Positions 13,565 to 14,716 of a stretch of 22,914 bases of DNA are shown one piece after another. The DNA lies in the IMG/VR virus record IMGVR_UViG_2703718780_000024, positions 1 through 22,914 of that record. One strand, written 5' to 3'. The number at the start of each line of letters is the position of its first letter. Positions within the stretch are counted from its first letter, which is position 1. The notes below the pieces were generated by a model, which was given only the letters and a program-made list of their open reading frames with translations, made no database searches and had not been told where the DNA came from. The DNA comes from a virus. Taxonomy: Duplodnaviria > Heunggongvirae > Uroviricota > Caudoviricetes. A program made the position numbers and the translations under genes.

Positions 13565-14716
13565 ATGAATGTAATAGATTTGTTTTCTGGCGTTGGAGGT
13601 CTAAGTCTTGGTGCTGCACGTGCTGGATTTGATGTTAAAATGGCAGTTGAAATTGATCAACATGCTATTAATACTCACGCAATTAATTTTCCAAGAAGTT
13701 TGCACGTCCAAGAAGATGTTTCTTTACTAAATGCAGAAATAATTAAGGGTTTTTTTAAAAACGATATGCCCATAGATGGTATTATTGGCGGTCCTCCGTG
13801 CCAAGGATTTAGTTCAATAGGCAAGGGGAATCCTGATGATAGCAGGAATCAGCTTTACATGCATTTCTACCGTTTAGTATCAGAATTACAGCCATTATTC
13901 TTTTTGGCAGAAAATGTTCCAGGTATTATGCAAGAGAAATATTCTGGCATTAGAAATAAAGCATTTAATTTGGTTAGCGGTGATTATGATATTCTTGATC
14001 CCATCAAGGTAAAAGCATCTGATTATGGTGCTCCAACTATTCGAACTAGATATTTTTTTATCGGTGTAAAAAAATCATTGAAGCTTGATATTTCAGATGA
14101 AGTATTTATGCCTAAGATGATTGATCCGGTTACTGTAAAAGATGCTTTGTATGGATTACCAGATATTATCGATGCCAATTGGCAATCAGACTCTGAGAGT
14201 TGGCGAACAATTAAAAAAGATCGAAAAGGGGGATTTTATGAAAAATTATGGGGGCAGATCCCTCGGAATGTTGGTGATACAGAATCGATCGCTAAGTTAA
14301 AAAATAATATCATATCTGGATGTACCGGAACATTACATAGCAAAATCGTCCAAGAGCGTTATGCTTCCTTATCTTTTGGGGAAACTGATAAAATTTCAAG
14401 ATCTACAAGATTAGATCCAAATGGTTTTTGCCCGACTTTAAGGGCGGGAACCGCTAGAGATAAAGGAAGCTTTCAAGCCGTCAGGCCGATCCACCCTTAT
14501 CATCCAAGAGTGATTACACCAAGAGAAGCTGCTAGATTACAAGGCTTCCCTGATTGGTTTCGCTTTCATGTAACTAAATGGCATAGTTTCAGACAAATAG
14601 GAAATAGCGTGTCACCAATAGTTGCTGAATATATATTAAAGGGGCTGTACAATTTATTAAATAAAAGAGTACAGCCCGAATATTTAAACCATAATTCTTT
14701 GGAAGTTAGGGTATAA
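13565..14716 (+). CDS. DNA (cytosine-5)-methyltransferase, 383 aa
   Basis: Canonical C5-MTase motifs in order: motif I DLFSGVGG (aa 5-12), motif IV GGPPCQGFS (Cys79), motif VI ENV (aa 116-118), and C-terminal QIGNSVSP. The gene is AT-rich. Confidence 0.9.
   Translation: MNVIDLFSGVGGLSLGAARAGFDVKMAVEIDQHAINTHAINFPRSLHVQEDVSLLNAEIIKGFFKNDMPIDGIIGGPPCQGFSSIGKGNPDDSRNQLYMHFYRLVSELQPLFFLAENVPGIMQEKYSGIRNKAFNLVSGDYDILDPIKVKASDYGAPTIRTRYFFIGVKKSLKLDISDEVFMPKMIDPVTVKDALYGLPDIIDANWQSDSESWRTIKKDRKGGFYEKLWGQIPRNVGDTESIAKLKNNIISGCTGTLHSKIVQERYASLSFGETDKISRSTRLDPNGFCPTLRAGTARDKGSFQAVRPIHPYHPRVITPREAARLQGFPDWFRFHVTKWHSFRQIGNSVSPIVAEYILKGLYNLLNKRVQPEYLNHNSLEVRV
14642..14678 (-). terminator. Candidate intrinsic terminator for the minus-strand GHKL operon, embedded in the MTase 3' coding region
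   Basis: 9-bp stem GGGCTGTAC / GTACAGCCC (14642-14650 / 14670-14678) with a 19-nt loop. On the minus strand it is followed by a U-rich run (UUUAAUAUAU). Confidence 0.35.

Follow-up and report, generated by a model that had tools for sequence, protein, structure and literature searches.

Introduction

In Escherichia coli, termination between opposing genes is widespread and largely independent of canonical terminator structure and of Rho, and it depends on convergent transcription and RNA stem-loops (review PMC13500782). Bidirectional and overlapping terminators have been described in the same context (Ju, Li and Liu, 2019; Wang et al., 2023, as summarised in PMC13500782). Here, we analysed a meeting point of this kind in a stretch of 22,914 nucleotides from a virus of the class Caudoviricetes (IMG/VR record IMGVR_UViG_2703718780_000024, positions 1 to 22,914, hereafter the window), where the plus-strand gene of a C5 cytosine DNA methyltransferase (MTase) runs into and overlaps a minus-strand operon encoding a MORC-like GHKL ATPase and a PF20553 (Methyltransf_35) protein. 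Our analysis indicates that two reciprocal hairpins at this junction, hairpin 1 and hairpin 2, are probably 3'-end-forming elements of the terminator type which confine convergent transcription. As with the E. coli convergent terminators, there are opposing units, stem-loops where they meet and transcripts predicted to overlap at their 3' ends, and neither a canonical U-tract nor Rho would be required. Unlike those terminators, the coding sequences themselves overlap and leave no intergenic space, and instead of one shared hairpin there are two, ~100 nt apart, with a predicted 3' overlap of ~180 nt. Each of the two lies within the codons of the other gene and folds better on the strand on which the stop codon precedes it.

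Two further groups of regulatory systems bear comparison. In the type I toxin-antitoxin pairs, RNAI and RNAII of par/Fst overlap by 35 nt, and bsrG/SR4 by 123 bp that are cleaved by RNase III (review PMC3874152). As at our locus, the promoters face each other, the 3' ends are complementary over a region containing the terminator stem-loop, and the pairs are carried on mobile elements and linked to toxic or defence functions. They differ from it in that their antitoxin is a small non-coding RNA, whereas both partners here are full-length mRNAs and any regulatory interaction is putative. In the EcoRI restriction-modification (R-M) system (PMC3141266), as could be the case here, the balance between the modification gene and its partner could come from antisense transcription within the pair. 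The EcoRI genes are co-directional, though, and their internal reverse promoters yield small antisense RNAs, whereas our pair converges and is explained without reverse promoters inside the genes, and the partner of the MTase is not a recognisable restriction enzyme.

With respect to gene content, the closest described systems are the paraMORC/MORC proteins of Dcm-linked, R-M-like operons (Iyer, Abhiman and Aravind, 2008, PMC2292703) and the module of HEF_HK, Response_reg_2 and a C5-MTase (Bellieny-Rabelo et al., 2021, PMC8011034). Both combine a GHKL+S5 ATPase with a C5-MTase, include an obligatory small partner gene, and are distributed sporadically across phyla and on mobile elements, as is the system described here. 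They differ from it in the partner, which in the window is a PF20553 protein of methyltransferase fold and not a nuclease, helicase, TIR or receiver-like protein, and no Vsr or endonuclease accompanies the window's cassette.

Structure and conservation of hairpin 1

The MTase gene (13565..14716, plus strand, 383 aa) and the PF20553 gene (14684..15673, minus strand, 329 aa) end within each other. Hairpin 1 (14642..14677, acting on the minus strand) is a stem-loop inside MTase codons 360-371, in which GGGCTGTAC (14642-14650) pairs with GTACAGCCC (14669-14677) through nine perfect pairs, five of them G-C. One part of it is built from the MTase codons K-G-L-Y and the other from the MTase tail described below. 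A sequence-only reading of this DNA had proposed a 9-bp-stem hairpin directly past the minus-strand stop, followed by a U-rich run. The perfect stem is there, starting 6 nt after the PF20553 stop, and so is the run on the 3' side of the hairpin in the minus-strand RNA (CUUUAAUAUAUAUUC, 14627..14641), although it is short and imperfect. The loop is 18 nt in the window, or 8 nt if three predicted inner pairs form, and 7-13 nt in relatives, whose stems are 9-15 bp. The U count of the relatives in the first 8 nt after the stem, obtained by reading the alignment, is 1-5 and mostly 4-5 (L066 has one). Folding energies are -17.7 kcal/mol on the plus and -16.4 on the minus strand (z = -6.7 and -7.1, respectively), and none of 200 shuffles was as stable.

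Taken by itself, the window's sequence makes hairpin 1 unexceptional, as 38 inverted repeats (9 nt or longer, within 45 nt) occur in it. One arm of each stem at the junction also encodes conserved residues. A chance palindrome, or a by-product of coding constraints in overlapping or abutting genes, could conceivably look the same. Hence, comparisons across relatives are what speak to this explanation. By protein-guided retrieval, we gathered 89 distinct loci (the E. coli copies, at >=99% identity, being useless for covariation) and aligned ten distinct junction sequences with MAFFT, which required a single 3-nt indel. Within this alignment, a 14-pair helix has 89.9% of its cells paired, against 20-52% when the 3' partner is slid, and RNAalifold independently predicts the same helix. 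Changes on both sides occur at 10 of the 14 pairs, and none of 500 column shuffles reaches the observed score, a count which is not a probability because the compared sequences are related. Such compensatory changes, also found at 3 of 10 pairs of hairpin 2 and with slid controls far lower in both cases, argue against chance, as does the rank of the hairpins, which come first among coding segments only in overlapping loci (see below). We regard chance as scarcely credible.

The departures from Watson-Crick pairing in the stem are informative about the strand on which it acts. Read on the PF20553-sense strand, they comprise 17 G.U cells against one A.C cell (binomial 1.4e-4), where the A.C class is what would be G.U on the MTase-sense strand. 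The hairpin is also more stable as PF20553-sense RNA in 9 of the 10 sequences, with means of -19.5 and -15.3 kcal/mol. This asymmetry and the lower energy on the PF20553-sense strand show that hairpin 1 is selected as RNA in the transcript of the GHKL operon, and not as a DNA palindrome or within the MTase mRNA. The earlier proposal that the hairpin acts on the minus-strand transcript thereby gains support from the comparative data. A ribosome-pausing element in the MTase mRNA was considered and rejected on the same G.U asymmetry.

The asymmetry also bears on the idea that the element works at the level of DNA, for instance as a palindrome to which a protein binds, as a cruciform, as a recombination junction of the cassette or as the recognition site of the MTase. 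The window's own copy would suit such a role, being by itself strand-symmetric, a perfect palindrome that folds equally on both strands (-17.2 vs -17.6 kcal/mol), and hairpin 1 sits at the seam between two modules. In the relatives, however, the 17 G.U cells would be C.A mismatches on the other strand or in a cruciform, and what is conserved is the pairing and neither the stem sequence nor the loop. A DNA-level element is thus very improbable.

A second hairpin past the methyltransferase stop

Hairpin 2 is absent from the sequence-only reading and was found through the window's list of inverted repeats. It lies on the plus strand at 14776..14803, 59 nt past the MTase stop and inside the PF20553 codons LPDKEAYQA, with the form CTGCCTGATA-8 nt-TATCAGGCAG and a folding energy of -18.7 kcal/mol. 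On its 3' side on the plus strand is a T-rich run, TTTACTATCTAAATTTATCTTTTCTTT (14804..14830). In the same ten relatives, 92% of the cells are paired against 24-49% in the slid controls, and none of 500 shuffles reaches the observed score. One of the three pairs that change on both sides combines a synonymous Pro change (CCT to CCA) with a matching Gln-to-Leu change in the other arm. Energy favours the MTase-sense (plus) strand, at -15.9 vs -13.3 kcal/mol. Hairpin 2 is a candidate 3'-end hairpin of the MTase transcript, its strand being less certain than that of hairpin 1. A single hairpin serving both strands does not describe this junction, where hairpin 1 is selected on one strand and a separate hairpin 2 follows the other stop.

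Gene arrangements among the relatives

We then scanned every 140-nt coding segment of the retrieved loci in 45-nt folding windows and ranked the segment nearest to the junction. In all nine clade-1 loci, no segment of the GHKL-PF20553 operon has a more stable hairpin than the junction-proximal PF20553 segment. In clade 2, which is only distantly related (~35% PF20553 identity) and has overlaps of 18-50 bp, this segment takes one of the top two ranks in 10 of 11 loci, and the ranks are scattered in 10 convergent non-overlapping and 14 co-directional loci. When the MTase gene is read antisense, its 3' segment ranks first in 8/9 clade-1, 9/11 clade-2 and 0/14 co-directional loci. The coding-embedded hairpins are thus exclusive to the overlapping arrangement and have arisen at least twice. 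The stem of clade 2 pairs the motif-X codons GGT AAY AGC with G CTR TTA CC; taken alone, the hairpin evidence from this clade is weak, and we treat it as suggestive only. As a separate observation, a clade-2 locus from Kluyvera sp. with a 50-bp overlap (L011, ~6850-6960) has a ~19-bp stem in the PF20553 3' coding region. The energy of this stem on the MTase-sense strand is -28 kcal/mol, and hairpin 2 of the window is much weaker.

The two relatives that retain a spacer between the convergent genes (L072, 58 bp; L073, 28 bp) carry one unrelated intergenic hairpin each, directly after the MTase end. The spacer of L073 holds a textbook bidirectional terminator, AAAAGCUCUC-AACU-GAGAGCUUUU followed by AAAAUUUU, and that of L072 a strong 13-bp stem with no U-tract. 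These two spacers bear in opposite ways on the explanation that transcription terminates further downstream, by Rho or by collision, and that the hairpins do no more than shield 3' ends from exonucleases. In E. coli, Rho-dependent transcripts often have their 3' ends shortened as far as a stable stem-loop, and protection would agree with the stem of L072 as well as with the weak U-tracts and the long loop of the window. A textbook intrinsic terminator at the homologous position in L073 speaks against it, and so does the position of hairpin 1 only 6 nt past the stop, which leaves little untranslated RNA ahead for Rho to load. We consider protection alone to be a rather unlikely account.

Probable formation of 3' ends at the junction

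Two facing transcription units are present, in the form of convergent open reading frames (ORFs) each with a predicted promoter, and the positions of these promoters, which face each other, are conserved. In our favoured reading, hairpin 1 would be the 3'-end-forming stem-loop of the minus-strand GHKL-PF20553 transcript, of the intrinsic-terminator type and possibly aided by head-on encounters of polymerases, while hairpin 2 would play the mirror role for the MTase transcript. Together, they would replace the single intergenic hairpin of the non-overlapping relatives. Each unit would be kept from antisense transcription through the other, and the two mRNAs would end in ~180 nt of complementary sequence (roughly 14634-14811). 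Release may be intrinsic or collision-assisted, or the stems may only protect 3' ends. The arrangement is most likely a compact variant of an ordinary terminator arrangement.

Several observations weigh against 3'-end formation by these hairpins. With its interrupted U-run and the 18-nt loop of the window, hairpin 1 is not a canonical intrinsic terminator, and a simple scan for consensus terminators lists neither hairpin (the loop of hairpin 1 exceeds the 8 nt of that scan), so that a canonical terminator cannot be claimed. The T-rich run after hairpin 2 is the antisense of conserved KEKINLDSKLP codons, and its composition is partly dictated by coding (Lys/Glu/Asn). The strand test on hairpin 2 gives 6 G.U against 5 A.C cells and no bias. 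In addition, one arm of each stem is under protein-coding constraint, the compared sequences are related as stated above, and in clade 2 eight of the nine stem pairs are invariant, the remaining one varying through two covarying synonymous changes. An Rfam scan of 13300-17500 at a permissive threshold found no known RNA family at the junction. It gave a chance-level match to rli31 elsewhere, within the PF20553 coding region (15111-15212), with 27 bits against a gathering score of 80 and E=0.26. The same coding region contains a 20-nt inverted repeat of 80% (15095-15142), and both were judged to be due to chance.

The 33-bp overlap and possible antisense coupling

The sequence-only reading had placed a 33-bp 3' overlap between the MTase and its minus-strand partner, and both our ORF calls and the Prokaryotic Genome Annotation Pipeline (PGAP) bear this out. 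The RefSeq/PGAP annotation of E. coli O157:H7 PA20 gives the same ends for both genes. The overlap (14684..14716, both strands) is codon-antiparallel. A Leu TTA codon of PF20553 stands opposite the MTase stop TAA (14714-16) as its reverse complement, and a Leu TTA codon of the MTase stands in the same relation to the PF20553 stop (14686-84). An identical 33-bp overlap is found in relatives of 89, 68, 67, 63 and 58% PF20553 identity, situated in different prophages or in a chromosome. Among 25 homologues, conservation of the PF20553 C-terminus (...YYRLYPNFQRIMV) extends to its final residue, so its stop is genuine.

The end of the MTase behaves differently. Its sequences are near-invariant through ...GNSVSPIVAEYILKxLY and divergent beyond. 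In L072 and L073, the protein ends ...LKPLYNLCK*, ~22 residues shorter and with the tail absent. MTases ending upstream of the overlap, which the earlier reading regarded as telling against its interpretation, therefore do occur among homologues, whereas the ORF of the tail is open in all ten distinct overlapping relatives. The MTase core ends at about residue 361, and residues ~362-383 are a poorly conserved and probably dispensable read-through tail. The window's clade has lost the spacer, and its MTase ORF continues through hairpin 1 into the antisense of the PF20553 C-terminus. The antisense of this conserved C-terminus contains no stop before an invariant Leu codon (TTA/CTA, which on the opposite strand reads TAA/TAG). 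Since the PF20553 C-terminus is conserved and the AT-rich Leu codon provides the stop, the constant 33 bp needs no selection of its own. In general terms, terminator-type RNA structures can be written into the coding sequence of the opposite strand once convergent genes lose their spacer, and an ORF tail can be a passive product of read-through, which is useful for annotation and for interpreting convergent overlaps.

This passive origin of the exact length matters for the proposal, made in the earlier reading, of antisense or transcriptional-interference coupling, in which the overlap is selected because it makes the expression of MTase and effector mutually dependent. Coupling could act through convergent transcription or through pairing of the ~180-nt 3' ends with RNase III cleavage, and could, for example, let the MTase dominate when a new host is entered or the prophage is induced. 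Conserved facing promoters would serve such a role, as would an overlap kept at exactly 33 bp down to 58% identity and arising again, at 40-50 bp, in clade 2. Moreover, the GHKL operon is the sole unit opposed to the phage early and late genes in five prophage contexts, where the MTase runs in the direction of those genes; antiterminated phage transcription would therefore read antisense over the effector genes. Precedents exist in the EcoRI antisense RNAs (PMC3141266) and in convergent type I toxin-antitoxin pairs with 3' overlaps of 35-123 nt (PMC3874152). Against this, 28 of the 89 distinct loci have an adjacent co-directional MTase (24 upstream and 4 downstream of the GHKL operon), so the system works without antisense geometry, and this geometry is not intrinsic to it. 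The selected hairpins would also restrict read-through, not promote it. We hold coupling to be improbable as the reason for the overlap, but it is compatible with 3'-end formation by the hairpins and could operate alongside it.

The cassette and its setting

The window is a lambdoid prophage at the Rac site (ttcA-adjacent) of Shiga-toxigenic E. coli. E. coli O157:H7 strain PA20 and other strains are 100% identical to it over a 3.85-kb segment (13400-17250), and 173 of 5,426 complete E. coli genomes carry this segment at >=99% identity, including O157:H7 and O111 strains. A methylome paper on O111 used a method by which 5-methylcytosine is not visible. No nucleotide match to the segment was found among deposited phage records. 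All three genes lie in a low-GC island (13300..17400, without strand) of 30-37% GC between flanks of ~50%, which is one acquired cassette in the nin region of the Rac-site prophage. A 14-nt inverted repeat with an 8-nt loop (13267-13302, CTATCTGCCTTGGG / CCAAAGGCAGATAG) sits on the left margin of the island, past the last nin-region ORF of the phage and ahead of the MTase promoter, and may be a terminator or a boundary of the cassette.

The MTase (PGAP WP_001100703) matches PF00145 over residues 1-361 (E=2.6e-61), and its catalytic motifs GGPPCQGFS, ENV and GNSV are intact. Its predicted sigma-70 promoter, the top-scoring site in the promoter scan, is TTAAAA-18-TATAAT with the TG of an extended -10 (13503..13532, plus strand), and the extended -10 stands at the same aligned position in L064, L066 and L068. 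On the minus strand, the GHKL ATPase gene (15673..17064, 463 aa, PF13589) and the PF20553 gene form a two-gene operon with an ATGA overlap, and the PF20553 gene is translationally coupled to the GHKL gene. The PF20553 ORF extends over 14684..15676 (330 aa) if read from a GTG, and the PGAP start is the ATG at 15673. For this operon, a sigma-70 promoter TTGACT-16-TAAAAT is predicted at 17117..17144 on the minus strand; at the aligned position, L064 has the same hexamers and L067 has TTGACA-17-TATTAT. Within the spacer of this promoter and overlapping the end of the -35 hexamer is a perfect 14-bp palindrome, CTTCGCATGCGAAG (17127-17140), which could be an operator; in L064 (89% identity), CTTC-N6-GAAG is retained there.

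The effector arm

The sequence-only reading had called the partner of the MTase a putative restriction or effector arm. Restriction finds no support: what faces the MTase is a MORC-like GHKL ATPase with a PF20553 protein of methyltransferase fold, and neither protein has a match to a nuclease family or domain in Pfam, NCBIfam, PADLOC or PHROGs, nor to a nuclease in the fold search. With regard to the components of a Type II R-M system, a DNA methyltransferase is present and a cognate restriction endonuclease was not recognised in these searches, although a cryptic nuclease is conceivable. PADLOC-DB v2 gave no match for the GHKL and PF20553 proteins, with the MTase matching generic MTase models only. 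For the two effector proteins, NCBIfam had no meaningful match and the only PHROGs assignments were to families without a known function. A sequence search of the PDB returned nothing useful.

The GHKL ATPase consists of a GHKL domain followed by an S5-fold transducer domain, and its Bergerat-fold motifs I-IV (DxxxNxxD, DNCGG, GVYGIGMK and GT) vary little or not at all among 25 sequences. At residue 34, where motif I normally has the catalytic Glu, all 25 aligned sequences have Asp, a substitution which may point to slow or regulated ATP hydrolysis. The PF20553 protein (E=2e-89 over the full length) has a class-I S-adenosylmethionine (SAM)-dependent methyltransferase (Rossmann-like) fold that is closest to nucleic-acid methyltransferases of the RsmD/Trm1 type, and 'O-methyltransferase' is for this protein a database name only. 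Its GFGGP loop is invariant, strand 2 ends in E66 and strand 4 is followed by D109, features that are compatible with SAM binding.

The triad is found across many bacterial phyla and in one archaeal metagenome-assembled genome (MAG), and the GHKL ATPase is obligatorily paired with the PF20553 protein. The cassette, which belongs to the MORC/paraMORC-methylase theme and is uncharacterised, is more interesting than the hairpins; eukaryotes link MORC proteins to DNA methylation, and the cassette offers a tractable counterpart of this link in bacteria. PF19191 and PF19192 (HEF_HK / Response_reg_2) gave no match at E<=0.1. No paper on the triad came out of literature searches on PF20553/Methyltransf_35, on the three WP accessions or on defence modules that combine GHKL proteins with methyltransferases. 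WonAB and VcSduA (PMC12137116) were considered as relatives and rejected, their architectures being unrelated.

As a speculative reading, which we rate as quite unlikely, the triad would be a nuclease-free, methylation-gated immunity or silencing system, with the overlap and its hairpins serving as a switch in the prophage versions. Cytosine methylation would mark self, the MORC-like clamp would engage unmethylated incoming DNA, and the RsmD/Trm1-like PF20553 enzyme would deliver the effector step by modifying nucleic acid. In the lysogen, the reciprocal hairpins would insulate each unit. On induction, antiterminated phage transcription could pass hairpin 2, increase MTase expression and, through antisense transcription, shut off the effector operon, a course of events that we only infer.

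Other observations

Some of the relatives hold more than one GHKL gene. In a Rhodoferax MAG (L007, 4616-11709), one C5-MTase lies between two convergent GHKL-PF20553 pairs, giving two effector operons and one methylase. In L071 (5208-8195), and likewise in L010, L013, L014, L018, L027 and L057, a second, longer GHKL protein (about 560-608 aa, HATPase_c_3) stands in its own operon with a C5-MTase beside the GHKL-PF20553 pair. This second operon may be the HEF_HK-type module of PMC8011034, in which case two GHKL systems would be arranged around one methylase.

Downstream of the gene for a Q-like antiterminator, the window carries two tRNA genes (19144-19219 and 19320-19396), which ARAGORN calls tRNA-Met(CAT) and tRNA-Arg(TCT). 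PGAP names the first one tRNA-Ile, presumably lysidine-modified. We take the pair to resemble the tRNA cluster of lambdoid phages of the Shiga toxin (Stx) type.

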